A stretch of 64,000 nucleotides of DNA from a bacterium (GTDB lineage: Bacteria; Bacillota; SLNR01; JBMNPB01). Shown here in pieces: positions 36,590-53,760 of this stretch. The stretch covers positions 24,163 to 88,162 of the forward strand of contig JBMNPB010000007.1 of assembly GCA_050943375.1 (NCBI GenBank). Reading direction: 5' to 3'. Under the pieces are notes generated by a model. It saw only the letters and a list, made by a program, of their open reading frames with translations. It ran no database searches and was not told the origin of the DNA. The translations under genes were made by a program, and so were the position numbers. The first letter of the stretch is position 1; every line of letters begins with the position of its first letter.

Positions 36590-37640
36590 CGTAACGTAGG
36601 GAACGACGTCCCTGTCGTTCCGGGCGGCAGCGCCGGTGTAAGCGCGTCCGGTCGAATAATGGAACAGCACCGGAAGGGAATTGAAACGGTGCCAGAGACT
36701 GCCGCGTCGCCGCAAAACGCAGCTCCTCGCAGTGACAATGGCTTTGCGATGCATGAAACAAAGGAGCGAATCCCGCGCCCGGTCAGGTCGCCGCCCGGTA
36801 CATCCCCAAAAGCAACGAAAATGCAGGCACAACGTAGGGAGCGACGCCCCGTCGTTCCGGGCAGTAGTACCGGTGAGGGGAAAACCGGCAAAGCGGTGGG
36901 GGTACTTATTAGGCGGGAGAGATTGCCGCGTCGCCGGAAGAGCGCCGGCTCCTCGCAATGACAAAAGTAAGGCTACGCGGGCTTTGGAAACCGGCGGCCG
37001 GGGCCCCGCGAGTTCCTGCGCCGCCACCTTTCCCTTGATAAGGGAGAGGGTACTGGCTCTCAGATATTGCCGGCTATTTGTTAAATTGCCCCTTTTTAAC
37101 AAGGGAGGTGTCCGGGGAACCCTTGCTTTCGGACATTGCCGCCTCATTTTTACGTTGTCCCCCTTGTCAAAGGGGGATGTCGCCGAATGGCGACAGGGGG
37201 ATTTGTTGGATTGGATGCTCCAAGGATTAGGCAGAGTGGTCGATTGCTGCCTATGGGGGATACAGGGACGGTGTTTCGGCAGGACAGCGGGCCGGGCGGG
37301 CATGGAAACCCGCCCCTACCGAGGAAAACGCGGAACGGTGGGGTCACCGTTCCTTACAACCGGGCGGGACAGCAGGTCGGCTGGGCGTTCGCCCGCTTCT
37401 CCGCCCAAACCGTGACGTAGGGAACCCCGTCGTTCCGGGCGGCAGTACCGGTGAGGGAAAAACCGGCAAAGCGGTGGTGGCACTTACTAGGCGGGAGAGA
37501 TTGCCGCGTCGCCGGAAGAGCGCCGGCTCCCCGCAATGACAAAAGTAAGGCTACGCGGGCTTTGGAAACCGGCGGCCGGGGCCCCGCGAGTTCCCGCGCC
37601 GCCCCATTGAAGAGGCCCGGGGCCTGCGCCCCGGGCTTGC
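36590..37640. repeat. non-coding island with at least four copies of repeat family A (GAGATTGCCGCGTCGCCGG..CCGGCTCCTCGCAATGACA..GGCTACGCGGG) plus a family B element (CCCCCTTGTCAAAGGGGG...TGTCGCCGAATGGCGACA)
   Basis: Family A cores lie at about 36695-36745, 36921-36965 and 37499-37545. Near-identical 150-bp units occur at 36825-36975 and 37419-37570. Family B lies at 37155-37205. Only repeat-derived ORFs are present. Confidence 0.8.
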
Positions 37641-37645
37641 CGGTA

Positions 37646-40447
37646 TTATCCGTTCTGCTCGACTATCACAATGTAGTTGTCGTAATCGTAATCCACATAA
37701 GCCCCCAAGGCCTCAGCGCAGAACCGGAAAGGAATCATTGTCCGGCTGTTCAAGATCTCCGGCGCCGTGTCGGACGTAACCCGGACCCCGTTCCGGTAAG
37801 CTGCCTTGTCGCCGATGTACAGGACGATCGTATTGCCGCCGAGCGTCGCCGTAATCTTCTGCCGCGCCGGATTGGAAGCATCATATTCCACATAAGCTCC
37901 CATCGCCTCCGCGAGAGCGCGGTAAGGAATCATTGTCCGGCCGGCAGTGATGTACGGGTGAACATCGGTGAAATCGATATATTTACCGTTGCACCGGACG
38001 AGCGGCCGGGTCGCCGTACCCTTGCGGGCGGTTTCGGCTGCCGTCGTGAAGGAATAAGTCGCCGCCTCGACCGCGTAGCCGTCCGCATCTTCCACATCAT
38101 CGGTGATGTACAGATAATACTTGGTTCCGTATTTCAAGTTGTTGTCGGGATCCACCGTCACCGTCCGGGTCGAGGAAGAGTAATCCACATCGGCCGCGAC
38201 TTTGGCACTGCTGCCGGCTTCTTTCAGATAAATATTGTCGTCATCAATGGTGGAGGACTTCATCGCCCGGGAGAACTTGAACGTAATCTCCTTTTCCACC
38301 GGCACTTTCGTCGCGCCGTCCGCCGGGCTGAGGGAAGATATTTTCGCCTTCTCCGGCGCTGTTCTGAACGTCCAGTTGGAGGCGTATACCGCTGTCCCGT
38401 ACTTGTCCTGGACGCCGGTGGTGACATAGACGGTGTATTCGGTGTCGTACGCGAGGGCGCTCTTCGGCTTCAGCGTTGCCATCCGATCTCCCGAGTCATA
38501 ATCGACCGTGGCGCTGATCTTGGTCGAGGAGCCGGCCTTGCGCAGGCAGATATTCGTCGTATTGATGGTGCTGGATTTCATCGCCGTGGAAAAGGTCATC
38601 TCGATCGTCCCGTCGACCGGGAAGCCGGAACTGCCCGGCGCCGGGGTGCGCTTGATGATGTGCGGGTAATCGTCGTCCATCGTCGTGAAGGACCACTCCA
38701 CCGCCTCTATCTCGTCGCCGTGTTCGTCTTCGACCTCATCGGTCACATAGACGGTGTAGCTCTCATTGTAGCGCAGGTTGCTCTTCGGAGTCAGTGTCAC
38801 CACCCGGGTCGACTCGTTGTACTCGACCGTGGCGGAAATCTTGCTGCTGTACCCGTCCCGGCGCAGAAATACGCTGCCGCTGTCAATCGTATCCTCGTCC
38901 ATATCATCGGAGAATTTGAACGTAATTCGCGTGTCCACCGGGACGTTCGTCGCGTCTTCGGCCGGATATTTATCCTGGACGCGGACATAGTCGGGGCTGG
39001 TCGTGAAATACCAGTTTTCCGCCGTTACCCGATTACCGCTGGTATCCTTCACGTTGTTAGTGATGTAAACATAATAAGTGGTGCTTGACTGCAGTTCGGC
39101 TTTCGGTGTCAGTATTACCGTCTTATTGGAATTGCTGAAGGAAAGCGTTGCACTTATCTTCGTGGAGGAGCCGGACTTCCGCAAATACACCGTGCTGCTC
39201 GTTACTGTTGAGGTGTTGAGCGGCTTATTGAAATCGATAATAATCGGCTGGTCAAACAGAACCCCGCTATCCTTGGCGTCCGGCTCCCGGTCGACAATCA
39301 CCGGCAGTGAGCCCGCCTCGGTGGTGAAAGACCAGGAGGTCGCGCCGACCGAGCGGCCGTTCACATCTTTAAGACGGTTGCTGCCGATAGACACCGTGTA
39401 GGTCGAACTGGCATCGAGAGCGGCCAGGGGTGTCAGGGTAATCTCGCAGCGGCCGTTCACGTTAACCGGCACCACCGAAGCCGCCACAACAGCGGTTCCT
39501 TTTTTCAGAGCGACACCGGCAGTAGTGAAATCGGAGGCCGCCAAATCAAGTTCTTTGTCAAAAATCATCTCGATATCGGAGTCCACATCCACGTTCTTCG
39601 CCCCGCTGCCCGGATTGCGGCTGACTACCGCCGCGGCTGTACTTGGGTTGCCTTGGGTGGTGAAGGTGTAGCTGGCTGCCGCCGCGGCGTTGCCGGCGAG
39701 ATCCTTGATGCCGCCCGCCGCCACCCAGACCTTGTATGTAGTGCTGTAAGCCAAATCACTGGCCGGGTCGAGAATTACCGTGTCACCGCCGGCCACACTC
39801 AGGGCGGCGCTGATCTTGGTGGAACTGCCGTCCTTGGTGAGGTAGATGCTGCTGCTGTTTACCGACCCGGGCAGGATATCCTCACTGAAGGCGACTTCGA
39901 TGTTGCGATTAATCGAAACATTATATTCGCTCCCCGCCGGATCGCAATCTTTGCCGACCAGTTGCGGCGCAGTGCTGTCCTTGGTGATTCCGTGAATGTC
40001 AAACCTGACCGAGCGCAGTGCCACCGACGTATCAGTATCCAGCAGCTGCAGATTCACGGTATATGTCTTGCTGGCCGAAGGTAAGCTGATGGTATTCAAG
40101 GTCGAAGCGGAGCCCGAAGTAATCCCGTCCGGATCGTAAAGCGGGTAATAATACCCGTCCGTGAATATCTCGCCCGTCAGCCGGTAATGCCCCCCCGGCC
40201 CGAGAATATGCTCGACCCTGAGCGTAAAATCGAGGTTGGCGTTCAGAGTAGGCGAATAACCGCTGCTCTCCAAAGTGGCGATGGAAGGCAGTTCAACTTC
40301 ATTCAGCCAGATTCCGGTGAATGACCCGCTCCCGGCCAGAACGGGCGCCGGAAGCGAAACTGACGCCGCGAAAACCAAGAGAGCGAGGATGGCCGCCAGG
40401 CCGGAACGGAAACTTCTTTTCAGGTAATGCATTGGATATCCCTCCAA
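37646..40447 (-). CDS. large cell-surface protein with tandem Ig-like (Big-type) repeats and a C-terminal copper-amine-oxidase-N-type wall-association domain pair
   Basis: The 933-aa ORF has a signal peptide (MHYLKRSFRSGLAAILALLVFAASVSLPAPVLA). It has at least five repeats of about 95 aa (V/IYLRKSGSSTKISATLS...TYYVYITNNVKD...W.FTT) and C-terminal TMIPYRALAEAMGAYVEYD / TMIPFRFCAEALGAYVDYD half-repeats. Confidence 0.8.
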   Translation of the reverse strand: MEGYPMHYLKRSFRSGLAAILALLVFAASVSLPAPVLAGSGSFTGIWLNEVELPSIATLESSGYSPTLNANLDFTLRVEHILGPGGHYRLTGEIFTDGYYYPLYDPDGITSGSASTLNTISLPSASKTYTVNLQLLDTDTSVALRSVRFDIHGITKDSTAPQLVGKDCDPAGSEYNVSINRNIEVAFSEDILPGSVNSSSIYLTKDGSSTKISAALSVAGGDTVILDPASDLAYSTTYKVWVAAGGIKDLAGNAAAAASYTFTTQGNPSTAAAVVSRNPGSGAKNVDVDSDIEMIFDKELDLAASDFTTAGVALKKGTAVVAASVVPVNVNGRCEITLTPLAALDASSTYTVSIGSNRLKDVNGRSVGATSWSFTTEAGSLPVIVDREPDAKDSGVLFDQPIIIDFNKPLNTSTVTSSTVYLRKSGSSTKISATLSFSNSNKTVILTPKAELQSSTTYYVYITNNVKDTSGNRVTAENWYFTTSPDYVRVQDKYPAEDATNVPVDTRITFKFSDDMDEDTIDSGSVFLRRDGYSSKISATVEYNESTRVVTLTPKSNLRYNESYTVYVTDEVEDEHGDEIEAVEWSFTTMDDDYPHIIKRTPAPGSSGFPVDGTIEMTFSTAMKSSTINTTNICLRKAGSSTKISATVDYDSGDRMATLKPKSALAYDTEYTVYVTTGVQDKYGTAVYASNWTFRTAPEKAKISSLSPADGATKVPVEKEITFKFSRAMKSSTIDDDNIYLKEAGSSAKVAADVDYSSSTRTVTVDPDNNLKYGTKYYLYITDDVEDADGYAVEAATYSFTTAAETARKGTATRPLVRCNGKYIDFTDVHPYITAGRTMIPYRALAEAMGAYVEYDASNPARQKITATLGGNTIVLYIGDKAAYRNGVRVTSDTAPEILNSRTMIPFRFCAEALGAYVDYDYDNYIVIVEQNG

Positions 40448-40899
40448 TTTTGAAATTCAAACTGCCGTTACCGGATAATGTCATCCCCCGCACCCCTCTC
40501 CGGGGCGATTCTCACCTCTGGCCATACTCCGGGCTGTGCCTCATCCACCCGCGCCGGCCGCAGGACATTGCTTGGGGCGCGGCGCGGGAACCGCAACCCT
40601 CACGCCCGCAATCGGGCGACGGGAATAATGTACTTGCCGGCAGGGCGTAAACCGCAGAAACGATCCCAGGATGACCGCCCTGACCTGAATATCCCTCATT
40701 CCCTGCCCTTCGCGTGCAACAAAAGCCGGGAGAGCCATTCCTCACCCCCTCGCTGCCTCCGCCAAAATTGGGCAAGGAGGAAAAGAAACGGGCCAAGAGC
40801 AGGCTGAGAGACGGTTAAAGACATGGCGACAAGATGAGAATGAGGACAGTAGAACGCGACATATCCGGTATTCACTTATTAATTCGGTAACCAGTCTAT

Positions 40900-41410
40900 T
40901 ATTTAGACGGAGGACGACCCTCCTTTGTTTCCTATTCTACCATTTATTTGTCGACTTTTTAAGACAAACCGGGAATTTCTCTGTCGCCGCCGGATAAAAA
41001 GCAGGAATCGCCCGGCGCATTCTTTGGAACGGGGCGACTCTTGCTGGATTTGAATGAAAGGACGCGAAAAAAGTTTGTCCGTTGACAAGGGGACAACGCA
41101 AATCTAAGCCTCCCTTGTCAAAGAGAAGTAGCGGCGCAGCCGTCGGTTTCCAATGCCCGCGTAGCCTTACTTTTGTCATTGCGAGGAGCCGGTGCTCTTC
41201 CGGCGACGCGGCAATCTCTCCCGCATAGTAAGTGCCACCACCGCTTTGCCGGATTTTTCCCTCACCGGTACTGCGGCCCGGAAAGACGAGGTTTCCTACG
41301 TAACGGTTTGAGCGGGGATGCGGGCAGGCACTCACACAGCCAATCCTCCTGTCGCCGATCGGCGCATCCCCCTTTGACAAGGGGGACAACATTAATCTAA
41401 GCCTCTCTTG
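40900..41410. repeat. repeat island: inverted family A copy (41150-41310) flanked by family B palindromes (41095-41125 and 41368-41400)
   Basis: The sequence is the reverse complement of the 37419-37570 unit. CCCCTTTGACAAGGGGGACAAC and CTTGTCAAAGAG motifs are present. Confidence 0.75.
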
Positions 41411-41789
41411 CCAATGGGAGGCGACAGCGAAGCCGGCGGAGGGACTCGGAGCACGGATTCCCTCGCCAGTAAAATCACCCGTATCGTCCCGCCTATGTCA
41501 CAATTCATGATAGAAATCCCGCCATTATCCGGCCTTTATCTGCTTTTCTCTTGCAATAACCGTTCTGACATCAATGCCCGCTTCATAATAAACCAAGGCG
41601 CTGACGTTATATCCGCGGTGTAAGTGCCGGCCTGCTTCTCTTTATGCTCGCACACCCTTCTTTTCAGGTTGTTGGTTATACCCGTGGACAGAACCGTATG
41701 AGTTTTGTTAGGCAGGTTATGACGAAATAATCCTTTGTCATTACAAGCACCTCTAAGCCAAAGATTACCGCGCCATGGGAAACAAGGGT

Positions 41790-42447
41790 TCCCGCCGCCT
41801 GAGTTTCGTTGCGAATAACTTGCTGCCGGGCAACGCGGGTACAAGAACTGATCCGGAGTTTGCCGCGTCGCCGGGAAAGCGCCGGCTCCTCGCAATGACA
41901 AGGGCCGGGCGATGCGGGTCCAAGGTTACGAAACCAAAGGGTTACATACTTCCGTGAAGGTATCTGCTCCCCAGGAAAGCTCTATCTGGACAATACGGAT
42001 TCGTGGCGCTCAGCCGGAGATTGCCGCGTCGACGGGAGAGCACCGGCTCCTCGCAATGACAGTAGTTGGGCGATGCGGGCCCAAGGTTACGAAACCTAAG
42101 GGTTACGTCCCTCAGTGAAAGTAGCAACTCTGCAAAACAAAACTATCTGGACAATGCGGGTACATGGCACTGAGCCGGAGATTGCCGCGTCGCCGGAACA
42201 GTGCCGGCTCCTCGCAATGACAGTAGTTGGGCGATGCGGGCCCAAGGTTACGAAACCTAAGGTTTACATCCTTCCGCGAAGGTATCTGCTCCCCAGGAAA
42301 GCTCTATCTGGACAATGCGGCTTCGTGGCGCTCAGCCGGAGATTGCCGCGTCGCCGGAAAAGCGCCGGCTCCTCGCAATGACAAGGGCCGGGCGATGCGG
42401 GTCCAAGGTTACGAAACCTAAGGTTTACATACTTCCGCGAAGGTATT
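41790..42447 (+). repeat. tandem array of about four units of about 160 bp, each containing a family A core
   Basis: Cores begin at about 41860, 42017, 42177 and 42339, with spacings of 157-162 bp. Each unit has the form gagattgccgcgtcgNcggRaRagcRccggctcctcgcaatgaca..gggcgatgcgggYccaaggttacgaaaccWaaggKttacRt..ggacaatRcgg..tcgtggcgctcagccg. The inter-core sequence is also conserved, so the array is not CRISPR-like. Confidence 0.8.
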
Positions 42448-42520
42448 ATGCAGGAAACTCACTCCGTACTACATACCATTCCCAATGAAGCCGGCGGCAT
42501 AGATGTGGGGTAACCCCGGA

Positions 42521-42556
42521 CGTAAAGGAAGACCCTCCATCACTGGAGGGTCTTCC
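42521..42556 (-). terminator. putative terminator after the 959-aa surface-protein gene
   Basis: A 13-bp perfect stem (ggaagaccctcca-tcac-tggagggtcttcc) sits 10 nt after the stop codon. The U-tract is weak. Confidence 0.45.
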
Positions 42557-42566
42557 GGATAGGCTG

Positions 42567-45446
42567 TTATTTCGTCAGGGTAATGACCTCGGTGCCGAAG
42601 TTGTAGTCGACATAGAACCCGAAGGCTTCACCGACGAAGCGGAGAGGCACAACGGTCCGGCCGTCAACGACCTTCGGAGCTACTTCGAGGGTCTGCTCGA
42701 CACCGTTCACCGAAGCGACGGTGGAACCGATGGTCAGCCAGACTTCGTCGACGGTATTCTCGTCAACCCGGAGCCGGTAGCAGACCTTGTCGGGAGCAAT
42801 GAACTCGACGTAGGCACCGATGGCTTCCGCGATGTAGCGGAACGGAACCAGAGTGCGGCCGTTCTCGGCGAACGGAGCAACATCGAGAGTGCTCATCGAG
42901 CCGTTGGCAACGGCGGTCTTGTTGCCGAGCTGCATGGTGATGACACCAGCGCCGGCAGCATCAAGAGAGACTTTGATTTCGCCTTCGGCATACTCATCTT
43001 TAACGTCGGTTTCGACCTTAACTGTGATCTTGCCGGTAGATACGGGCTTGATCTTGAAGGTAACCTGGCCGTTTTCGTCAGTCTCGCTCTCGGCGGTCAA
43101 AGGACCGGTGAGTTCGACATCCTTCTCAGCATACGGCTTACCATGAGCGTCAAGAACCGTAATCGTAACGGTGGACACAACGTCGACACCGATGGCCGCC
43201 GGGGAAGCGGTGATGCTCATGCCGACAACTTCGATCTCGGCAACTTCCACACGCGGGCCGTCATCGATCTCAACTTCGAAGGTCAGGAGCATCGGCTCGT
43301 CATCGTCATCCTCTTCGTAAGCGAGGATGTCGAATTCGGCCTCGCCGTCACCCATGTCGATATCGAACTCCTCCGCGTCGTCACCAATGTCTGCCAGTTT
43401 ATCGCCATCAATCGCAAGGGTGCAGTTGTCGGGAGTGATATACAGATACGCGTCTTCGATCACGCTGTCGTCCCGCGGGTCAACCAGCTTGACTTCCCAG
43501 TTTTCTTCAACCATGTAAGTCAGCTTGGTGTCTTCGTTGGGGAGAACGAGCTTCGGCGCGAGGACTTCGATAGTTGTCTTGCCGATGAACTCGCCGTTGT
43601 CGGTCTTGAAGACAAGGTCAAGCTCTTCCGCTTCGTCGTGGACAAAGGAGAAGGAGTAGACGTTACCGTCACGGTCGAGCTCGATGTCTTCGCCATCGAT
43701 GGTAACGTATGCATTGCTATCTTTCACATACGCGCCGTCCTCGTCCTTAACGGTGAATTCAACGTCTTCTTTTAGTCCGGCTACGAGCTGCTCAGGAGCG
43801 TCAACGTCGTAGACGTCCTCGCCTTCGACATCGATCTTCACGTAGGTCATTGGTGTTCCGTCAACCTTGGTCACCAGCACAAATGCGGTGCCGACTTCGT
43901 TGAAGCGGACAGTCCTTGTGTAAATGCCGTTGTTGATGTTGGTTTTGCTGGAATCGATTTCTTCGAAATCAATCCAGTCTTCGTCGTCATCATCGTACTC
44001 ATCCGCATCGTAGTCATTGATTGAGTCTGGATTAAAGACGTCATCCCAATCCCAGTCAAAATCTTCATTGTCAACTTTCAGATAGACGACCGCGTTGTTG
44101 ACCGGGGTCTCGTCGGTCTTGGTCACGACAGCCTTGAACTCGTACTTATCTTCATAAGTAGCGGTCTCCGGGGTTACAGTGACGACCCAACCGTCAACCT
44201 TGATCTTCTCGGTCTTGGTCACTTTGTCGCCGTCTACCATAGTCGCGACGGCGGTAACCAGGATCTCGCCACCGCACTCGGGAAGGAGTCCCTCAAAAGT
44301 ATATGAGTTATCGGGAATCGATTCATCATCAACTGTCGCATCTTCATCGATGCCGCAACCTTCAACTGTAATCTTAACCTTCTCGATGTTCTCGCCGATA
44401 CCGTCACCGTCGTCATCCCAGAACTCAACCTCGAGATCGAGTTCTTTGACCGCGTCGACTTCGGTGTCGCTGAGGGAAATGTTGAAGGAAGAAGGTCTGA
44501 CGACTTTGATGGTGGTTTCACCTTCGTAGTCTCCATCTTTATCCGCTGTTACCTTGGCAGTACCAGCCTTCGGGAATTTTACAGTGATAGTGACTTTGCC
44601 GCCATCGACTGTCGTCCCAGACGCTTCGTAATCACCGAGAGTGATTTCGACGTCAGCGCCAATTACCGGCTTGCTGCCGTCTTTTACAGTAACTTCAATT
44701 ACTTCCGCCCGATCTCTGATGACGGAGGACTTGTTGACTTTAACTGACAGCGTGTCTTTCGCTGCAACTTCAAATTCATCGTATTCGATTTCGTTGTCAT
44801 CGCCGTCATCGCCACCAATCCACGGGCACTCGAGCATTACCACATAGTCGCCAGCCTTATCAAACTTGGCAGCCAGAGCGAAGGAACCGTTGGAAGCCGC
44901 TCTGGTCGAGGCAATAGCGTCACCCCTGCTATCGCCGGATTTGACAATGTACACATATGGTCTGTCTTCGAGGCTGTAGCCGGCGCCGTCTTTTACAGTA
45001 CCGGTGATGGTCTTGGTGTCACCGATCTTGATTGACGGAATGGTCAAGCTCATGTCATGCTTGGTTGTGACAGTCGTTGAAGCTAATCCGTCAGGAATAG
45101 CGCTCTCTACAAGGTCTACCACATCATCATCGATTACAATTTTGTAATCCTCGTTGTGGTCATCCGCGGCATTGATTACAACATTGAAAGAACCCGAGGA
45201 GAAAGGTCCTCCATGCGCGACGCGCTTGTTACTTCCCACCTCAAACACACCGTAGTACAAATCATCTCTGTTCGCCTTATCATCTTTCAATACAGTAACA
45301 CGAACAGTATTGGTAGTGGCTGTGAGTATGTACTCGTCGGCTTCGACCTTATAGACCGGGCCGTCAGCAAAGACCGGCGCAACGACACCGAATGTGCTGA
45401 GAAGCATAGCCAATGTCACAACTATGGCTATAAGTTTCTTCTGCAT
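42567..45446 (-). CDS. large, highly acidic cell-surface protein with a C-terminal copper-amine-oxidase-N-type domain pair
   Basis: The 959-aa ORF has a signal peptide (MQKKLIAIVVTLAMLLSTFGVVAPVFA) and Asp/Glu-rich beta-type repeats. The C-terminus carries TLVPFRYIAEAIGAYVEF / RTVVPLRFVGEAFGFYVDY, matching the wall domain of the 933-aa protein. Confidence 0.8.
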   Translation of the reverse strand: MQKKLIAIVVTLAMLLSTFGVVAPVFADGPVYKVEADEYILTATTNTVRVTVLKDDKANRDDLYYGVFEVGSNKRVAHGGPFSSGSFNVVINAADDHNEDYKIVIDDDVVDLVESAIPDGLASTTVTTKHDMSLTIPSIKIGDTKTITGTVKDGAGYSLEDRPYVYIVKSGDSRGDAIASTRAASNGSFALAAKFDKAGDYVVMLECPWIGGDDGDDNEIEYDEFEVAAKDTLSVKVNKSSVIRDRAEVIEVTVKDGSKPVIGADVEITLGDYEASGTTVDGGKVTITVKFPKAGTAKVTADKDGDYEGETTIKVVRPSSFNISLSDTEVDAVKELDLEVEFWDDDGDGIGENIEKVKITVEGCGIDEDATVDDESIPDNSYTFEGLLPECGGEILVTAVATMVDGDKVTKTEKIKVDGWVVTVTPETATYEDKYEFKAVVTKTDETPVNNAVVYLKVDNEDFDWDWDDVFNPDSINDYDADEYDDDDEDWIDFEEIDSSKTNINNGIYTRTVRFNEVGTAFVLVTKVDGTPMTYVKIDVEGEDVYDVDAPEQLVAGLKEDVEFTVKDEDGAYVKDSNAYVTIDGEDIELDRDGNVYSFSFVHDEAEELDLVFKTDNGEFIGKTTIEVLAPKLVLPNEDTKLTYMVEENWEVKLVDPRDDSVIEDAYLYITPDNCTLAIDGDKLADIGDDAEEFDIDMGDGEAEFDILAYEEDDDDEPMLLTFEVEIDDGPRVEVAEIEVVGMSITASPAAIGVDVVSTVTITVLDAHGKPYAEKDVELTGPLTAESETDENGQVTFKIKPVSTGKITVKVETDVKDEYAEGEIKVSLDAAGAGVITMQLGNKTAVANGSMSTLDVAPFAENGRTLVPFRYIAEAIGAYVEFIAPDKVCYRLRVDENTVDEVWLTIGSTVASVNGVEQTLEVAPKVVDGRTVVPLRFVGEAFGFYVDYNFGTEVITLTK

Positions 45447-46454: not shown

Positions 46455-46520
46455 CCGAGATTGCCGCGTCGCCTTCTTCTGAGAGTATTACTGCCGGGCG
46501 GCTCCTCGCAAAGACACAGG
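46455..46520 (+). repeat. family A repeat copy (degenerate)
   Basis: aaacccgagattgccgcgtcgcc...gctcctcgcaaagacacaggcaaggctacgctggc. Confidence 0.7.
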
Positions 46521-46783
46521 CAAGGCTACGCTGGCAAAGTAAAGGCGGGTCACCGGCCCCGACCGGTTGAACCCTGATACCCTGCCCTTCTCCAGAGATC
46601 AAGCGATAAGTGCGGGTCGCAGGGAACGACGCCCCGTCGCTCCCTGTTGCGGTGCTTGCTTGTCGGTCAAACCTGATCCATTTGTAGGGATGGCCCTCGT
46701 CGTTCCGGACCGCAGCGCCATGCCGGCAGGCGTATCCCCCGCCCGATACACCCTCTCCCCGGACGCCGTCCGTCCCTCTCCGT

Positions 46784-47485
46784 TTACGGCAATACCGGGT
46801 ATCCCGGCAAATAAGGAGCGATGCCGGCAAGCAGGAAGACGGCGATGAGCGCCACGGCGATCAGGAATACAATCAGAGCCGCAACCGGGACGAGGATAGT
46901 AAGCACGGCGCGGCCGGTGGAGAGGCCGTGCACTGCCTGGACGGCATTCACCATGAGGACAACGGACCAGATGAAGACAGCAAAAGCAAGGATATTATAT
47001 ATCCACTCCAGACGCCCCCGGGCAAGCAAGGCAGCCGGCGCGAGGAAGATGCCCGGCAGGCCGGTAAAGCCGAGAGCGACGAAAAGATGATAGCCGCGCC
47101 CGGTGCCGCCGAAGAATTCGGCCAGCAGATGCAGGACGGCCGTGCTCAGGAACCAGCCGGCGGCGCCGCCCAGCAGACTGAGCGGGAATAGGACGAAGAG
47201 CAAGACAGACCGGACCGCCGCCGGCAGTTCGTCACCCGCGACGTAGCCGGCCGAGACGGCCGAGAGAAGCTGGGTAATGAGAAAGACAAGCACGGCCGCC
47301 CCCAGGGGGTGGTCGCGGGCTATCTTCGCGAACGTCGCGGCCGGGGTGAAGAGGACGCCGTACAGGAGCTCGAAGAAGGTGTCCCGGCCGGGCGGCGGCG
47401 GATTCTCCGCCGGGGACGCCGCGGGGGCCGGCCGGTCGGCGGCCGGGGTATTCCCGGCATCGAATTGGTTTTCGTTGTCGTTCAT
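46784..47485 (-). CDS. Yip1-domain membrane protein
   Basis: The start was moved to MNDNENQFDAG at 47485, which has the RBS AAGGAGG. The product is a Pro/Ala-rich N-terminal tail followed by five TM helices of Yip1 type (FFELLYGVLFTPAATF...). Confidence 0.65.
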   Translation of the reverse strand: MNDNENQFDAGNTPAADRPAPAASPAENPPPPGRDTFFELLYGVLFTPAATFAKIARDHPLGAAVLVFLITQLLSAVSAGYVAGDELPAAVRSVLLFVLFPLSLLGGAAGWFLSTAVLHLLAEFFGGTGRGYHLFVALGFTGLPGIFLAPAALLARGRLEWIYNILAFAVFIWSVVLMVNAVQAVHGLSTGRAVLTILVPVAALIVFLIAVALIAVFLLAGIAPYLPGYPVLP

Positions 47486-47689
47486 GGTTTCAGCCTCCTT
47501 GGTGGTAAATTGCCGGACCATCGCCGCCATTGCTCCAGGCGCGCCTGATAACAGCGCCGTCCGTCTTGTTTCCGGCACGCTCCCGGGGCGTCCCGATCCT
47601 CACCCCTATCCCCTCTCCCGCATCGGGAGAGAGGAATTAGCGCAGTTGGGCGGCGGGATAACCGCATCGGGAAGGAGAAGCGGGCAGGC

Positions 47690-47830
47690 GCCCGTGCAGC
47701 CTTACTTTTGTCATTGCGAGGAGCCGGTGCTCTTCCGGCGACGCGGCAATCTCTCCCGCATAGTAAGTGCCCCCGCCGCTTTGCCGGTTTTGCCCCGGCC
47801 GCACCGCGGCCCGGAGCGGCGAGAGCGTCG
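47690..47830 (-). repeat. family A repeat unit (inverted orientation)
   Basis: ccttacttttgtcattgcgaggagccggtgctcttccggcgacgcggcaatctctcccgcatagtaagtgcc... is the reverse complement of the 37419-37570 unit. Confidence 0.75.
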
Positions 47831-47947
47831 CTCCCTACAATTACGGCCGGGTTTTGCCCTGGCCGGCACCGCGGCACGGACGGCGGGGGCAAGCCCAACG
47901 AATACGTCCCGCCGCCCAGTCCCGAAAAGAGGAGCCGGGGATGAGGG

Positions 47948-48883
47948 TTAATTCCCGAAATCCACTCCATAACCCGGCAGCAGCAAAAACCGCGCGGGGA
48001 CGATAGGCTCGGCGGCGGCCGGCAAGCCGGCCCGGCTGCCGAAGCCGGAACGGAGCATCTGCCAGATGGAAGCCCTCCCGTATTCGCGGACGGTATATCT
48101 CTCCCCGAGGCCGGCCGCCGCGGCGGCCTCGTCGATGGCGTCATAGAAATTGCCCAGCGTGTCGACGAGGCCGAGGTCAAGCGCCTGCCGGCCGGTGAGA
48201 ATCCGCCCGTCGGCGATTTCCCGCACCCGGGCCGGCTCCATCCCCCGGCCCGCGGCGACGACGTCAACGAACTGCTCGTAGACGTCGTCCACCATCGCCT
48301 GCAGCAGCTCCTTCTCCGCCTCCGTCATCTCCCGGGCCGCGGAGCCCATATCCTTGTGCGGGCCGCTCTTGATCACATGCATCTCGATGCCCGCTTTCCG
48401 GTACAATTCCTCGTAATTGGAATATTGGATGATTACCCCGATGCTGCCGGTGGTCGTCGACGGATTCGCCACGATCTTGTCAGCCAGAGCCGCCACCCAA
48501 TAGCCGCCGGAGGCGGCCGTGTCGCCCATGGAGGCGACGACTGTCTTGCCGGCTTCCCGCAGGCGGCCCACTTCCACCCCGATTTCCTGCGCGGCGGCGG
48601 AACTGCCGCCGGGGCTGTTGATGCGCAGGACAACGGCGCGCACCGCCGGATCCTCCCGCGCCTGCTTCAGCTGCGCAATGACAGTGTCGGAGCCGGCGAC
48701 AGCCCCGCCCAGCAGGCTCGAACCGCCGGGCCCGCCGAGAATCATGCCTTCAATATAGATAACGCCGACGGTGCGGCCAGCGGCGGCGCCGGCCGGGCGC
48801 CGATCCGGACGGGCCAGCAGTCCGGCGGCGGTCAGGATGATAACGGCGGCCAGGACGAGCCCGCCGAGTATTTTTTTATTCAC
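47948..48883 (-). CDS. sppA: signal peptide peptidase SppA (S49 family, 36K type)
   Basis: The 311-aa ORF has an N-terminal TM, VGVIYIEGMI..., and the serine-site region (AVVLRINSPGGSSAAAQEI). Confidence 0.85.
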   Translation of the reverse strand: MNKKILGGLVLAAVIILTAAGLLARPDRRPAGAAAGRTVGVIYIEGMILGGPGGSSLLGGAVAGSDTVIAQLKQAREDPAVRAVVLRINSPGGSSAAAQEIGVEVGRLREAGKTVVASMGDTAASGGYWVAALADKIVANPSTTTGSIGVIIQYSNYEELYRKAGIEMHVIKSGPHKDMGSAAREMTEAEKELLQAMVDDVYEQFVDVVAAGRGMEPARVREIADGRILTGRQALDLGLVDTLGNFYDAIDEAAAAAGLGERYTVREYGRASIWQMLRSGFGSRAGLPAAAEPIVPARFLLLPGYGVDFGN

Positions 48884-49142
48884 TTTCCCTTCCCTCCCGC
48901 ATCATCTTCTGCCGCGCCGGCGCGGCGCGGTCAACTGTATTATATCCGAGGCGAAAGCGGATAGTCAAAACCGGGCGGTAATTTTCCTGAGTCCATCACT
49001 CAAAAAATAAACCCGTATCCATATAGACAGTAAGGACATTTATTTATCCGTGCCCGAAAGTGAATGATCAGACAGAGCGGCAGCAACAATGAAGCGCAGG
49101 GCTACTGACCCCGCGCTCTCCCTTGGCTGACCTCAGCACCGC

Positions 49143-49517
49143 CTACTCCGCCGACCGGAAATAAATGTCCCGGCACTTACCGCAGAAAGCGCACTCCACG
49201 GCGTGGACCTTGTCCTGGGTCAGCCCCCATTCGCGCAACTCTTTCAGAACCGGCGCCAGACTCGCGCCCATCCCGCTCAGGGAATATTCGACCCGGGGCG
49301 GGACTTCCGGGAAGACCCGGCGGCGCACCAGACCGTCCGCCTCCATCTCCCGCAGCTGCTGGGTCAGGACCTTGGTGCTGACGGGCGCGATTTCCCGGGC
49401 GAGCTGGCCGTGACGCAGCGGCCCGCGGGACAGCGCTTTCATAATCAGGATTTTCCATTTGCCGCTGAGCAGCGAGAGAGTCGATTCAATGGGACATTTT
49501 CCTATCGTTTCGCGCAT
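49143..49517 (-). CDS. HxlR-family transcriptional regulator
   Basis: The 124-aa ORF has the HxlR signature (CPIESTLSLLSGKWKILIMKAL...RVEYSLSGMG). It is divergent from the racemase gene. Confidence 0.8.
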   Translation of the reverse strand: MRETIGKCPIESTLSLLSGKWKILIMKALSRGPLRHGQLAREIAPVSTKVLTQQLREMEADGLVRRRVFPEVPPRVEYSLSGMGASLAPVLKELREWGLTQDKVHAVECAFCGKCRDIYFRSAE

Positions 49518-49674
49518 GGCTGTCGCCTCCGTTTCCCCGATAGTTACCTATGGGTCGGCAAGGTTACAAAAAAGTGCCTGCTTGCCAGATTTCCCTTTTC
49601 AGTATATTTTTATCTTAGCCCGGCGTCAATCGGCAAAGCGGCGGGCGGACGAAAATCCTCAGGAGGTGCTTGCC

Positions 49675-50367
49675 ATGAAAAAAGCCGGTCTGGTCGGCGG
49701 AATCGGCCCGGCGTCAACGCTGGAGTATTACCGGGGAATCACCGAAGGTTACCGGGAGAGAGTAGGCGGCGGCAATTATCCCCCTCTCATCATCGACAGT
49801 CTTAATTTGGCCGAGATCTACGACCTCGTCGACAACAAGCAGTGGGACGAATTCGCCGCCCGTTTCGTCCGGTCGATAAAGAGTCTCGCGGCCGGCGGGG
49901 CCGAATTCGCCGCCATGGCGGCCAACACGGCCCATATCGTCTTCGACGCAGTCCGGAGTCAGTCCCCTCTGCCTCTGGTCAGCCTCGTCGAGGAAACGAG
50001 CAAAGCCGCCCGGGCCAAAGGCTGCCGGCGCATCATCGTCTTCGGCACCGGGTTCACCATGCGCAGCGGCATGTACACGGAAGCGCTGGCAGAAGCGGGA
50101 ATCGAAGCCTTCGTGCCCGAGCCGGACGAACAGTCGGCCATCCACAACATCATTTTCCCCCACCTGGAAGAGGGAATCGTCCTGCCGGAAGAGAAGGAAA
50201 CGATGCTGAATATCGCCCGCCGCCTGATCAGCGAAAAGAAGGCGGACGCGCTGCTCCTCGGCTGCACGGAACTGCCGCTGATCATCAAGCCGGAAGATCT
50301 GGCCGTCCCGGTTCTGGATACGACCCAAATCCACATTGACGCCATTTTGGACAACATCCTGGCCTGA
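49675..50367 (+). CDS. Asp/Glu/hydantoin racemase-family protein (aspartate racemase-like)
   Basis: The start was moved to MKKAGLVGGIGPASTLEYY at 49675, which has the RBS GGAGGT. Two catalytic-Cys regions typical of the family are present (GCTELPLI). Confidence 0.8.
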   Translation: MKKAGLVGGIGPASTLEYYRGITEGYRERVGGGNYPPLIIDSLNLAEIYDLVDNKQWDEFAARFVRSIKSLAAGGAEFAAMAANTAHIVFDAVRSQSPLPLVSLVEETSKAARAKGCRRIIVFGTGFTMRSGMYTEALAEAGIEAFVPEPDEQSAIHNIIFPHLEEGIVLPEEKETMLNIARRLISEKKADALLLGCTELPLIIKPEDLAVPVLDTTQIHIDAILDNILA

Positions 50368-50415
50368 ACGCCGAAGCCCGAGCGGCGGCGAAAAACCGGA
50401 CGGGGAGGAAGAAAA

Positions 50416-50856
50416 ATGTATCTTTACACTATTGGCTTTACGCAGAAGAGCGCCGCGGAGTTTTTTTCGCTCTTAACCGAAAATGATGTCGCCGTCCTGG
50501 TGGACGTCCGTCTGAACAATTCCTCCCAGCTGGCCGGGTTTTCCAAAGGCAGGGATCTGGAATATTTCCTGCGGACAATCTGCGGCTGCCGCTATGTCTA
50601 TGCGCCGGAGCTCGCGCCGGCGAAGGAGATATTCGACGCCTATAAAGGCAAAAAAATTTCCTGGCCGGAATTTGCCGACCGCTTCCGGGCGCTCATCCTG
50701 GAAAGAGGCGCCCTGGACGCTTTCCCGGCGGCGCCCGGCGGAGCGGAAAGAGTCTGTCTCCTGTGCAGCGAACCAACGCCGGAGCATTGTCACCGGCGGC
50801 TGCTGGCGGAAATGCTGCGGGAGAAACAGCCGGAGATAATCATCAACCATCTCTAG
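50416..50856 (+). CDS. DUF488-family protein
   Basis: The 146-aa ORF reads MYLYTIGFTQKSAAEFFSLL...VLVDVR...LLCSEPTPEHCHRRLLAE, the DUF488 signature. Confidence 0.7.
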   Translation: MYLYTIGFTQKSAAEFFSLLTENDVAVLVDVRLNNSSQLAGFSKGRDLEYFLRTICGCRYVYAPELAPAKEIFDAYKGKKISWPEFADRFRALILERGALDAFPAAPGGAERVCLLCSEPTPEHCHRRLLAEMLREKQPEIIINHL

Positions 50857-50913
50857 ACGGGGAATAAAAGGCGGACGGCTGCTGGCCGTCCGCCTTTCTT
50901 TTTTCACCCCTAT

Positions 50914-52203
50914 TTACTGCCAGACCGACTCGGTATATTTGTTGCTCGCGTTCCAAAGCAGGAATTCCTCCACCCCCAGTTCCGCCAAGGCCCGGATCTG
51001 GGCCTCGACTTCCGTCTTGCCGTAAGGGATCGCTCCGTCCACCCATTTCACCGCCGTGAAGTCCTGCAGCCAGGGACGGATAATAGCCTTCCGGGGCAGC
51101 GGCTCGTTCCTCTCCAGCGCGTCGGTGATGGCGTTGTGCACGGTCCCGTGGGGATGCGCGTCCGGCACCGCGTAGCCGAAATATCCTCTGCCGTAATGGC
51201 TGGGATAAACCATCGGGCAGATGTAGTCGGTGGCGGCGCTGATTGCCTCCCATTCCTGGCCGATGTCGTCCGTGTCGCCGGGCGATGTGGCGATGACCCC
51301 GAAAACGTCGGCACTGACGAAGACGCCGTAAGGAGCAAGCTCCTCCCTGGCGTAAGCAAGGAATTCGGCGACAGCCTGCGCCTTCGTCCGGTCATTCTGC
51401 TGCGGAAAGGCGGCTTCGGCGTTGACCCGTTTGGCGTTGTCCGGGAAGCGGACATAATCGAACTGAATCTCCCTGAAGCCGTTGAGGGCCGCCTCCTTGG
51501 CAATGGCAATATTGTAATCCCAGACTTTCCGGTCGAAAGGATTGACCCAGGAAATGCCGTCCTTGTCCTTCCAGACGCCGCCGCTCTTCCTCTGAATGGA
51601 AAGATCGGCCCGGTGGCTGGAAAGGTTGGGGTCCTTAAAGGCGACGATGCGGGCGATGGGATAGATTTCTTTCTCTTTCAGTACCGCCAGCAGCGCCCCT
51701 ACATCCTTAATCCGTACGTAACGATTCGCCCCGACCGCCTCGGCCATGGCGATATCGCTCCGGTACGTCATCAGGCCGTTGTCGTCTTTGACGTCAATCA
51801 CGAGAGAATTCAGGCCGGAGTTTTCGACCAGAGCAAGCAGGTGATTGAAGCGGGAAGCAAGTCCGGCGATATTGCCGGTGATGTACAGGCCTTTTGCCTT
51901 AACCGGCGGATTGTCAGGCAGGACGGCGGGCGGCAGGGGTATGTACAGATCGCCCAATTCCGCGCGCCGGCGCTCCTCCGCCTCGGCCCGCAGCCGCTCC
52001 TCTTCGGCGCGGCGCGCTTCCTCCGCCAGGCGGGCTTCTTCGGCCAGGCGCTGCTGCTCCTCGACCCGGCGCTGTTCGGCCGCCAATTTCCGGGCATCGC
52101 TGAAAGCCCGCACCTGAGTGACAGCGACAAACATCAGACAAACGAGCAGGAAGGAAGCGGCAAGGAAACGAAGACGGAAACGGGGCTTTGGCTTGGCCTG
52201 CAC
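50914..52203 (-). CDS. putative glycoside-hydrolase-like TIM-barrel protein (GHL/DUF4015-type) with an N-terminal anchor and an Arg/Glu-rich coiled segment
   Basis: The 429-aa ORF has a TM anchor, then an RRVEEQQRLAEEARLAEEARRAEEERLRAEAEERRRAEL low-complexity region, then a GHL-type domain (WVNPFDRKVWDYNIAIAKEAALNGFREIQFDYVRFP). Confidence 0.6.
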   Translation of the reverse strand: MQAKPKPRFRLRFLAASFLLVCLMFVAVTQVRAFSDARKLAAEQRRVEEQQRLAEEARLAEEARRAEEERLRAEAEERRRAELGDLYIPLPPAVLPDNPPVKAKGLYITGNIAGLASRFNHLLALVENSGLNSLVIDVKDDNGLMTYRSDIAMAEAVGANRYVRIKDVGALLAVLKEKEIYPIARIVAFKDPNLSSHRADLSIQRKSGGVWKDKDGISWVNPFDRKVWDYNIAIAKEAALNGFREIQFDYVRFPDNAKRVNAEAAFPQQNDRTKAQAVAEFLAYAREELAPYGVFVSADVFGVIATSPGDTDDIGQEWEAISAATDYICPMVYPSHYGRGYFGYAVPDAHPHGTVHNAITDALERNEPLPRKAIIRPWLQDFTAVKWVDGAIPYGKTEVEAQIRALAELGVEEFLLWNASNKYTESVWQ

Positions 52204-53149
52204 GGTATCATTCTCCTTTGCGCGATAGTGTCGGATATTAAGTAAACAATTCCGATATTACCGCCAAATCCCTGCCGTTTCGACAAAATATCGGGATGAT
52301 TTTTTTCACCGGAAAGCAAAGGTAAAGCAGGCCGGAAACAGATACCAGGACAGAGCCAGAAATAATTAATGAGGGCTGAGATTCGCGTTTCCGAAATCTT
52401 GCCGCCGGATGAGCCGAAAAAAACGCCCGGAAACAAAAAACAAAAGCCGGGACGGCAGGCAATCCGCAGGGCCGCAAGATGAAGTCATATATTCTCATTC
52501 TTGCCCCTCTCCCACATCGGGAAAGGAGATGCGGAGTTATTTCGCAGTCTTTGCGGCGGAGGTGTGACCGGCAAAGGAACGGACCACCCAGGCACTGCGT
52601 GCCGTCCCTCCGCCGGAGGGGAATGGAAAGCCGGGCAATGATTACGGTCCGCGCTTTGCGCCGCCGCTGCCGCGGAGAAAAAAATTGGCGGGCAATTAAA
52701 ACAATACCGTCAACAATTCCCCTCTTCTGGAGGGTGGCCGGAGAAGCCGGACGGGGTGGCCGCGGGCGGTGTTCCGCGCTGCCCCGCTTTTATCGATGGG
52801 AAGTAGTAAGTCAAAAGCCGCAAGCGGAACGGCGGGACGATAGCGATGGCAAAGACGGCAAACGGGTCCCGTTACAGGCCGGACTGACGGCAGGCTGCCG
52901 GCCGCCGCGTCCCCGGGCGCGCGGGCTTTGCCGCTGCTGCGGGATAATGCGGGAGCCGCCCTTCCGGTCGGCCCCCGATATATACCATAATTCCCGGCTG
53001 GTGGACGGGAAGAAACTGGGAGAGCTTCGGGAAGAAAACGGGAATGATGCGGAGAAGACGGCGGCCGGGAGAAGGCGGCTTGGGTTGAAACGTTGAGGCC
53101 GGAATGTATGAAATGCGTTCCCTCCGTAAGAAGGAGAAGGGGCAGGGCG

Positions 53150-53720
53150 CGAAACCCGAGATCGCCGCGTCGCCGCTCACGGCTCCTCGCGATGACATTT
53201 GCAGGGCAATGCTGGCCATAAGGTACAAAAGTCAAGAGTACCGTTTCGCCGCCCGCGGCTCCTCATGATGACAAGGGCTTGGCTATGCAGGCGCTAACCC
53301 TCGCTCCTGCCCGCCGTCTGCGTATGGATTGGCTTTCGGGAGCGGCGTCTCGGCCAATTCAAATCCCTCCGTCAGCTTCGCTGCCACCTCCCTTTAACAA
53401 GGGAGGCTTCTGGGGACTCTGGCTCTCAGGCATTACCTACTTCCGTTTACGTTGTCCCCCTTGTCAAAGGGGGATGTCGTCAATAGGCGACAGGGGGATT
53501 TGCTTCAACGCAAGGCTATCATCGTATCAGTATGGCACTGCCGGATGCCAAATCCCTCCGTCAGCTTCGCTGTCACCTCTATTTGACAAGGAGACTACCA
53601 AAGCCTGCGGTGGCTGTGGCAGATATGGTATTGAGAGCCGTCGCTTTTTCGGGAGAAGCAGTATCCTTGGACGTTGTCCCCCTTTGACAAGGGAGGCAGG
53701 CAAAATCCGCAAAGAGAAAC
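53150..53720. repeat. repeat island with family A (53158-53198 plus a half copy at 53245-53275) and family B (53385-53410, 53452-53500, 53585-53600, 53672-53700) elements
   Basis: gagatcgccgcgtcgcc..ggctcctcgcgatgaca; ttgtcccccttgtcaaagggggatgtcgtcaataggcgacagggggatttg. The 53395-53505 stretch is homologous to 37080-37205. Confidence 0.75.
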
Positions 53721-53760
53721 GCCCGCGCCGGTTCGCTTGGCGCGGGCGTAAAAGATCACC

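Follow-up and report, generated by a model that had tools for sequence, protein, structure and literature searches.

A three-armed intergenic repeat family in a spore-forming Firmicute and many other bacteria fits the pattern of purine-motif intrastrand triplexes

Results

Family B Elements in the Window

The DNA analyzed here, referred to as the window, is a stretch of 64,000 nucleotides (nt) of contig JBMNPB010000007.1 (GenBank assembly GCA_050943375.1, positions 24,163 to 88,162 of the forward strand), which is part of the chromosome of a spore-forming Firmicute and encodes Spo0A, Rho, and FliG. It contains a dispersed non-coding repeat of approximately 46 nt, family B, in which a pyrimidine arm, a complementary purine arm and a third, mirror-image purine arm follow each other on one strand, an order that fits the class II purine motif of intrastrand DNA triplexes. 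All copies in the window are located in four unusually long non-coding spacers (36.5-37.6, 40.4-42.6, 47.6-47.9, and 52.3-53.8 kb), two of which adjoin the genes of Ig-like/Cu_amine_oxidN1 surface proteins of 933 and 959 amino acids (aa). The B-bearing spacers also contain modules of another repeat (family A), GTAG-tagged hairpins, a 161-bp tandem repeat and a GIY-YIG pseudogene.

An earlier note, made from this sequence, had described family B as a palindromic element, and searches with the 18-mer core CCCCCTTGTCAAAGGGGG (up to three mismatches) confirmed a genuine dispersed repeat lying where that note had placed it: five matches were found in the window against 0.10 expected, and none of 100 shuffled sequences reached five. 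The core occurred exactly at 37159 (+), 53456 (+), and 41368 (-), with one mismatch at 53678 (-) and with three at 53388 (-), and the looser head pattern CCYTTKWYAARGG gave 10 strand-matches in the window against 0.02 expected. In total, the window carries four complete elements, one decayed full-length copy and six head or partial remnants (Table 1). The complete elements comprise three of subfamily B1 and one of the sister subfamily B2, which is laid out as CCTCCC TTGTTAAA GGGAGG, hairpin, GGAGGGATTT. Both full copies recognized earlier, at 37155-37205 and 53452-53500, are therefore present, although they are not the only ones: the supposed partial copy at 41368-41400 belongs to a complete minus-strand element (41342-41386) with its own hairpin and tail GGAGGATT, and that at 53385-53410 is the head of the complete B2 element. 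The other pieces listed as partial or inverted (41095-41125, 53585-53600, 53672-53700, and 37080-37110) have all decayed and represent either heads or B2 copies.

The complete B2 element matched B2 copies in more than 30 foreign loci with 80-92% identity (blastn). Family B combines with family A, from which it is separated by 15-125 nt in the window, and also with itself, so that the composite modules proposed earlier were upheld, including the homology of 37080-37205 with 53385-53505 (81% identity over 91 nt between 37115-37205 and 53412-53502). In addition, 41089-41146 and 41382-41439 share 76% identity. The head-to-head layout of 53362-53500 recurs in the foreign loci L038 and L057 (Parcubacteria), L062, and L117, and in the computed fold of the window dimer the two tails (AAATCCCTCC and GGGGGATTT) are paired with each other.

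Table 1. Family B elements and neighboring repeats in the window (Y, pyrimidine; R, purine). Energies and z scores refer to Watson-Crick folding of DNA only.
Feature	Position	Strand	Composition	Fold and third arm
Complete B1	37158-37203	+	Y arm TCCCCCTT (37158-37165), loop GTCA (37166-37169), R arm AAGGGGGA (37170-37177), linker mini-hairpin TGTCGCC-GAAT-GGCGACA (37178-37195), third (mirror) arm AGGGGGAT(T) (37195-37203)	Two hairpins, -17.1 kcal/mol, z = -5.6; mirror arm 7/7
Complete B1	53455-53500	+	Arms as in the 37158 copy; linker TGTCGTC-AATA-GGCGACA; tail GGGGGATT (53493-53500)	-13.6 kcal/mol, z = -4.5; mirror arm 7/7
Complete B1	41342-41386	-	TCCCCCTT GTCA AAGGGGGA - TGCGCCGATCGGCGACA - GGAGGATT; one mismatch in third arm	z = -3.4; mirror arm 6/7
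Complete B2	53362-53406	-	CCTCCCTT GTTA AAGGGAGG - T GGCAGC GAA GCTGAC - GGAGGGATTT	z = -4.3; mirror arm 7/7 vs. direct repeat 5-6/7
Head-to-head dimer	53362-53500		B2 on - strand, 48-nt spacer, B1 on + strand	-31.4 kcal/mol, z = -5.3 (53358-53506)
Decayed B2	41402-41446	+	CCTCTC TTGCCAAT GGGAGG - linker - GGAGGG ACT; head-to-head dimer with 41342-41386	
Decayed B2	53550-53595	-	Tail AAATCCCTCC and linker intact, head stem broken; blastn matches to foreign B2 copies	
Head-only remnant	53678-53696		CCCCC TTTGACAA GGGAG(G); left flank ACGTTGT of B1 kept, loop inverted, without tail	
B2 head remnant	37089-37108	-	GCCCC TTTTTAACAA GGGAGG; within module 37080-37205	
B2-like head remnant	37026-37050	-	CCACCTTTCCC TTGATAA GGGAGAGGG; directly after a family A module	
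Decayed head pair (decayed head-to-head dimer)	41077-41128		GTCCGTTGACAAGGGGAC, spacer, CCTCCCTTGTCAAAGAGAAG	
BoxC/TM_ECO-like repeat, a second and different triplex-type repeat	47598-47634	-	CCTCTCTCCC GATGC GGGAGAGGGG ATA GGGGTGAGG	z = -3.5
Family A module	36847-37030	+		
Family A module	37425-37608	+		
Family A module	41139-41325	-		
Family A module	47690-47796	-		
GTAG-tagged hairpins, REP-type	36833-36858 and 37300-37355		GTAGGGAGCGACG...CGTCGTTCC; GGGCGGG...CCCGCCCCTAC; GGAACGGTG...CACCGTTCC	
GIY-YIG nuclease pseudogene	~41536-41760	-	Frameshifted over three reading frames	
161-bp tandem repeat	41847-42445		~3.7 copies, 83-88% identity	
Canonical terminator	53708-53745		After the MBL gene, separate from B	

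Three Arms and a Hairpin Linker

The conserved arms are the pyrimidine arm (T)CCCCCTT, its Watson-Crick purine partner AAGGGGG(A) and the 3' purine arm (A)GGGGGAT(T), which mirrors the partner. The first two form hairpin 1 (CCCCCTT/AAGGGGG, loop of 4-5 nt), whose sixth pair co-varies (G-C, C-G, or T-A). The class II purine motif calls for a 5' pyrimidine arm complementary to a purine arm over at least 6-7 nt, which is found here as TCCCCCTT/AAGGGGGA (8 bp) and CCTCCCTT/AAGGGAGG, and for an antiparallel third arm that places G against G-C and A or T against A-T, as found at seven of seven positions in three window copies and at six of seven in the fourth. When the copy at 37158-37203 was checked by hand, all eight triplets obeyed the rule (T-A·A, five C-G·G, T-A·A, and T-A·T). 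The tail AT opposite AA is compatible with a purine motif on the G-rich strand and incompatible with a pyrimidine motif on the complementary strand.

A scan with one genome per species revealed the exact 18-mer in at least 119 loci. These foreign loci were picked by their exact 18-mer head, the tail and the linker being free of selection, and among the matches listed GGGGGAT followed within 60 nt of the head in 104 of approximately 137 occurrences. In the Y/R hairpins with asymmetric 7-nt arms of the 119 listed loci, a perfect mirror of the purine arm lay downstream in 345 cases and a direct repeat in 88, while upstream 47-48 of either kind were counted. The mirror prevailed over the direct repeat for AAGGGAG (49:0), AGGGAGG (39:1), AGGGGAG (11:2), GAGGGGG (12:4), GGGGAGG (3:0), and GGGGGAG (3:0), and the two arm registers of the B2 (CTCCC) type gave 88 against 1 when pooled. 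The purine arm AAGGGGG is followed by the tail GGGGGAT, AAGGGAGG of B2 by GGAGGGAT, AAGGGAGA by AGAGGGAT, GAGGGGG (loop TCTGACGA) by GGGGGAG, AGGGGAG by GAGGGGT, and GGGGAGG by GGAGGGG. All three arms thus shift jointly between subfamilies, from B2 (CCTCCC/GGGAGG/GGAGGG) to B3 (TCTCCC/GGGAGA/AGAGGG) and B4 (CCCCCTC/GAGGGGG/GGGGGAG). In addition, the base before the G-run of the tail tracks the sixth pair of the hairpin (C-G·G in 36 of 37, T-A·A in 6 of 8, and G-C·T in 30 of 32), and stem length and third-arm length go together. The two adjacent hairpins described earlier are present in the DNA fold. The GGGGGA regarded as a flank is instead a third arm, which mirrors the purine arm and changes along with it. 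Neither Watson-Crick pairing nor a symmetric DNA-binding protein would call for such a mirror, which is demanded by an antiparallel purine-motif triple helix, and the arms point to an intrastrand triplex motif.

An alternative Watson-Crick pairing between the C arm and the tail, as in a switch or attenuator, was rejected because the tail mirrors the G arm and does not copy it (B2 arms: direct 0-1, mirror 39-49). The mirror tail might also be a structurally meaningless frozen accident of a few founders that combined two neighboring hairpins with a G-rich sequence. The independent subfamilies are indeed few, the G5 run is its own mirror, which in most B1 copies leaves the flanking A/T and the sixth position as the sole informative sites, and scrambled genomes commonly hold 7-nt triplex motifs (PMC4666352). 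Such an accident is nevertheless improbable given the 88:1 ratio of the two CTCCC-type arms, the lead of the mirror in four other asymmetric arm types, the triplet-by-triplet covariation at four different positions and the dependence of third-arm length on stem length; the same Y-R-R order is also present in the unrelated BoxC-like element of the window and in the published TM_ECO.

Loop 1 is TTGACA/TTGTCA in several phyla and the element is nearly palindromic, and TTGACA corresponds to the -35 hexamer of sigma-70, as might be expected of a double-stranded binding site for a regulator or nucleoid protein. A promoter was rejected, as no -10 element was found at 16-18 nt from the loop on either strand. 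The loop also varies (GTTA, GTGA, GATA, GCCA, or GCCTA) while the arms stay, compensatory changes keep an intrastrand pairing that duplex recognition does not need, and the symmetry of a dimeric protein is at odds with mirror repeats, all of which makes a binding site of this kind very improbable.

The linker between head and tail measures 2-6 nt or, more often, 16-27 nt and differs in sequence in nearly every copy. Relatives with a short linker of 2-5 nt were found in Geomonas, Woesebacteria, Chlorobiales, and Parcubacteria; such linkers resemble those of designed triplex oligonucleotides. A linker hairpin was found in 61 of 62 distinct versions, folding better than shuffled sequences (-6.9 vs. 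-2.2 kcal/mol, DNA parameters). The triloop C(GNA)G, a hyper-stable type of DNA mini-hairpin, closes 30 of the 62 distinct linkers and a GNRA loop only three. The consensus given earlier for this second hairpin is approximate, as 4 of its 18 positions differ between the two copies and the stem of the second contains a T.G pair. The element ends sharply: it is preceded by WWGS and followed by ATT (T in 99%), and conservation is absent beyond these limits.

Distribution and Genomic Setting

Family B belongs to a very widespread bacterial family and is not genome-specific, contrary to the possibility, raised with its first description, that the motif is confined to the window. Its hosts include Oscillospiraceae and other Clostridia, Geomonas, Elusimicrobia, Parcubacteria, Woesebacteria, Chlorobiales, Ignavibacteria, Dehalococcoidia, cyanobacteria, and a betaproteobacterial metagenome-assembled genome (MAG), and thus span Clostridia, Beta- and Deltaproteobacteria, Elusimicrobia, candidate-phyla-radiation bacteria, relatives of Chlorobi, and cyanobacteria. 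A phage origin was rejected, as only 8 viral contigs among 2.9 million contained the 18-mer.

The annotated record of Vescimonas fastidiosa NZ_AP023416.1 (861 kb) contains 37 matching places. In its first 250,000 nt, all 10 elements are intergenic, and the nine sites lie between convergent (four) or co-directional (five) genes and never between divergent ones. The loop GCCTA is found on both B1 and B2 in this genome, and such a lineage-specific shared loop suggests homogenization or recent spread within the genome. GC skew of this linear record showed no clear origin or terminus (250 kb examined for replication-strand bias). The record is labeled a plasmid and carries dnaK, groEL, fusA, ftsH, topoisomerase, and sporulation genes, thereby resembling part of a chromosome or a chromid. 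Vescimonas heads with a third arm on both sides were observed at 69513-69572, 181970-182035, and 198359-198421.

The betaproteobacterial MAG (CANJJT01) contains at least 16 copies. In five of its loci (L002, L003, L008, L024, and L027), inward-facing inverted B pairs lie approximately 230 nt apart and bracket approximately 140 nt of variable DNA; these pairs are nested in a second pair of the variant repeat TTAACCCCCTTGTCAAAGGTTCTTCG..TTCCGGGGA and are often located upstream of genes of TctC-family (Bug) transporters. Another locus (L056, 1166-7940) contains a diversity-generating retroelement, with a reverse transcriptase bearing LGNLTSQ and two 325-aa target genes that differ in the C-terminal ~40 residues, and both predicted target open reading frames (ORFs) have a B copy within their 5' end.

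The association with family A noted in the window, where B always lies beside A copies, is only partial elsewhere: the family A core GCAATGAC was counted 53 times in the 119 B-bearing loci against approximately 25 expected, spread over 37 of them. In metagenome contigs of unrelated organisms (L129-L131), family-A-like hairpins, GTCATTC(T/C)...GGAATCC, were observed approximately 100 nt upstream of B, which indicates that the A/B association recurs beyond this genome, with an overall enrichment of only about twofold. A 26-mer specific to the lineage of the window matched three loci, which belong to unrelated organisms.

Searches for Expression Signals and Linked Genes

The earlier note had suggested that the elements act at the RNA level, as terminators or stabilizers at the 3' ends of transcripts. 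Stable GC-rich hairpins, T-rich sequence after ATT in some lineages and the position of all nine annotated Vescimonas sites downstream of at least one gene are in line with an intrinsic terminator, a 3'-end stabilizer or a small RNA. None of the four complete window copies was called promoter-like or terminator-like by prediction, and an intrinsic terminator was rejected as no T-tract consensus follows the element and both orientations occur. Orientation relative to the neighboring genes is even, as judged from crude gene calls in the foreign loci and from the annotation in Vescimonas, and the MBL gene of the window already has a separate canonical terminator. Scanning with the 4,227 Rfam models gave no match at the gathering threshold, and E-value scans gave only chance-level matches elsewhere in the spacers. 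C(GNA)G triloops dominate in the linker over the GNRA or UNCG type. Furthermore, PIT elements have neither promoter nor terminator activity, and purine-motif triplexes cannot form in RNA, where the logic of the arms fails (PMC4666352). A role in RNA is thus hardly credible, and family B is not a gene-expression signal.

Family B resembles repetitive extragenic palindromic (REP) sequences and bacterial interspersed mosaic elements (BIMEs) with respect to its behavior, being non-coding, intergenic, multi-copy, clustered, and alternating in orientation, as revealed by the head-to-head dimers of the window, the Vescimonas sites and the copies of the betaproteobacterial MAG. A miniature mobile element of the REP/REPIN type, moved in trans by a single-copy transposase (REP-associated tyrosine transposase, RAYT; another HUH enzyme; or GIY-YIG) with the hairpins and tail as protein determinants, would account for the dispersed intergenic copies with sharp ends, the BIME/REPIN-like dimers and alternating clusters, the loop homogenized within the Vescimonas genome and the preference for the 3' sides of its genes. 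The GTAG-tagged hairpins beside B in the window and in Clostridia MAGs and the GIY-YIG pseudogene in one B spacer speak in the same direction, and loops of the DNA type C(GNA)G would suit enzymes acting on single-stranded DNA.

The Pfam scan covered 40 of the 57 window ORFs of at least 90 aa and revealed no transposase or Y1 domain, and all-against-all clustering of the 4,801 ORFs of the 119 loci (832 kb) yielded only housekeeping families (TctC, ABC transporters, and two-component systems) and no shared neighbor protein. A GIY-YIG association was rejected because a tblastn search of the 119 B-bearing loci detected no GIY-YIG, despite the pseudogene in the spacer at 40.4-42.6 kb. The flank profile showed neither a GTAG or CGTC tag at the end of the palindrome, the GTAG-tagged hairpins being separate neighbors, nor a target-site duplication, and so lacks the combination of terminal inverted repeats and duplication that defines miniature inverted-repeat transposable elements (MITEs). 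The link to a RAYT raised earlier found no support in these searches. REP sequences are, moreover, normally lineage-specific, while the arms of B are common to many phyla, and recognition by a protein does not predict a mirror, non-complementary relation between arms. Mobilization of this kind is accordingly considered rather unlikely.

Rearranged Spacers Compared to a Relative

Two of the B spacers were compared to those of a relative with approximately 80% nucleotide identity in the flanking genes. The relative (L132, 10630-12423) shows the gene order HARE-HTH, MBL, pyrG, DUF4015, and where it has 1.8 kb with pyrG (CTP synthase), the window (52297-53767) has 1.47 kb of A/B repeats and no detectable remnant of pyrG. 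The spacer between SppA and Yip1 measures 140 nt in the relative (L135, 3074-3213), with two tandem BoxC-like motifs in the orientation opposite to that of 47598-47634 (-) in the window, where the spacer measures 369 nt and holds, besides an inserted family A module, one copy that has decayed and another that is inverted. The assemblies of both organisms break at these spacers, and the Logan contigs of the window source are short and break at repeats.

Other Repeats of the Window

The BoxC/TM_ECO-like motif at 47598-47634 (-), which fits the TM_ECO pattern except for approximately two mismatches, occurs in a Firmicute. The four family A modules measure 106-184 nt and share 92-95% identity, and an inverted pair of them (37455-37576/41139-41260) brackets the 933-aa Big_5/Cu_amine_oxidN1 gene, so that homologous recombination could turn the intervening DNA around. 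Every unit of the 161-bp tandem repeat also carries the family A core (GAGATTGCCGCGTCGCCGG...CTCGCAATGAC). The two larger pieces of the GIY-YIG pseudogene, when joined, matched PF01541 (E = 3.6e-8). Hairpins of the type GTAGGGGCG, similar to the GTAG-tagged ones, precede B in rabbit-gut Clostridia MAGs.

Discussion

The order Y arm, R arm and mirror R arm corresponds to the class II intrastrand triplex motif of Holder et al. (2015), known under the earlier names BoxC and PIT elements (PMC4666352); the BoxC/PIT intrastrand triplex work is attributed there to Hoyne and Maher (2000). The pattern of TM_ECO, CCCTCNCCC-N3-6-GGGNGAGGG-N3-GGGNGAGGG, forms a stable triplex in vitro according to circular dichroism and nuclear magnetic resonance, shows no pattern in orientation or neighboring genes, and is located where E. 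coli strains differ from each other more than they do at control loci, while PIT elements block DNA polymerase in vitro (PMC4666352). Family B shares with BoxC/PIT/TM_ECO the sequence of arms and loops on one strand, a G/C-rich composition, multiple intergenic copies independent of orientation and sometimes in inverted pairs, the lack of a linked gene and the variability of its loci. It differs from TM_ECO in sequence (C5TT/AAG5/G5ATT vs. CCCTCNCCC/GGGNGAGGG/GGGNGAGGG, so that it does not match the TM_ECO pattern), in its arms of 7-8 instead of 9 triplets and in its second loop, usually a mini-hairpin of 16-27 nt instead of 3 nt, and its taxonomic spread is far wider than the Proteobacteria and cyanobacteria of BoxC/PIT/TM_ECO. 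Judged by its sequence, family B would be a new variant, in sequence and architecture, of a known class of intrastrand-triplex repeats, with the population behavior of REP/BIME elements.

Earlier searches for such motifs set limits on the loops. Holder et al. allowed loops of 1-6 nt and set 7-nt stems aside (PMC4666352), and the search of Hoyne et al., as reported there, used loops of 0-10 nt. Loop 1 of B (4 nt) lies within these limits, while loop 2 is a hairpin of 17-19 nt in all window copies, outside them, so that hairpin-linker copies are missed; published searches with loops up to 10 nt would thus miss a large class in which a mini-hairpin serves as the second loop. The family B sequence is absent from the accessible part of the supplement of PMC4666352, no description of it was found in later literature, and a search of 8 million papers with the literal sequence returned only irrelevant primer matches.

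Comparison with other repeats further delimits the family. Like REP, BIME, and REPIN sequences (PMC3733652, PMC2817692, and PMC3116915), B consists of short extragenic hairpins in alternating clusters and inverted doublets, mostly on the 3' sides of genes, and unlike REP/RAYT systems it has no GTAG/CGTC tag, no RAYT detected nearby, arms conserved across phyla and a third, non-complementary mirror arm. It shares with the mirror repeats of H-DNA a homopurine mirror able to form R·R-Y triplets, but its arms are short, a structured linker lies between them, and its pyrimidine arm is on the same strand, so that a single strand could supply the whole fold and no long duplex tract would have to be unpaired. 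MITEs such as Correia, RUP, and Nezha are likewise small, non-coding, multi-copy, and hairpin-forming, and the inverted pairs of the betaproteobacterial MAG recall them; the unit of B, however, is only ~35-50 nt, without terminal inverted repeats matching a known insertion sequence and without a visible target-site duplication.

On balance, family B is a repeat of approximately 46 nt that probably belongs to the class II purine-motif intrastrand DNA triplexes, gives no expression signal and is likely to act as a structural obstacle and a hotspot of local rearrangement. Wherever the G-rich strand is left single-stranded, be it at a replication fork, in a transcription bubble or in an intermediate of repair or recombination, arms 1 and 2 would pair into an 8-bp hairpin, and the variable middle segment would fold into its own mini-hairpin as a compact linker. 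The 3' arm could then occupy the major groove, running antiparallel to the purine arm and giving the reverse-Hoogsteen triplets G·G-C, A·A-T, and T·A-T. By analogy with TM_ECO, the result would be an obstacle around which DNA is rearranged locally, and such rearrangement may also multiply copies, head-to-head dimers and composite A+B modules. The family itself, its limits and breadth, the joint variation of its three arms, the conserved hairpin in the linker, the lack of an expression signal or, in the loci searched, of a linked gene, and the divergence of its spacers were observed. Triplex formation, its occurrence in DNA rather than in RNA, and a causal part in rearrangement and copy turnover are inferred.

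Several points weigh against this interpretation. The triplex rule was assessed on sequence alone, 7-8 triplets are short, and Holder et al. regarded 7-nt stems as near chance level; the TM_ECO triplex was detected neither in duplex DNA nor by in vivo dimethyl sulfate footprinting (PMC4666352). The covariation amounts to approximately 6-8 independent subfamily events, each amplified into many copies, and since the loci were chosen by the exact 18-mer head, the conservation of loop and head is partly an effect of selection. Where two elements lie head to head, the triplex also faces competition from a duplex between their tails. The rearrangement is an association in two spacers that also hold family A repeats, and as the contigs of the relative end at these spacers, they offer no clean empty-site comparison for a single B copy. 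Finally, B was found between divergent genes in 13 of 60 cases with crude gene calls in the foreign loci, against none of the nine annotated Vescimonas sites.

The repeats of family B account for bloated spacers that break assemblies, and mark differences in gene order between close relatives, which here include the lost pyrG position and the spacers beside two large surface-protein genes. To our knowledge, BoxC/PIT/TM_ECO have been known for 25 years without in vivo evidence that the triplex matters. Natural covariation, missing from the E. coli work, is provided by family B: when a pair of the hairpin changes, the third arm follows with the matching triplet, a pattern repeated across several positions and subfamilies and across distant phyla. 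This covariation makes selection of DNA triple helices by bacteria testable with a 46-nt oligonucleotide and comparative genomics. A bolder and tentative reading, to which we give only limited credence, is that the mirror arm has been selected in more than ten phyla and that triplex and hairpin linker are functional, either as the recognition module of an undiscovered, widely transferred mobilization system (a "triplex REP") or as a conserved signal of the cell that acts on single-stranded DNA at the replication fork. If this were true, the triplex would be an evolutionarily validated structure and not an accidental hazard of non-B-DNA.

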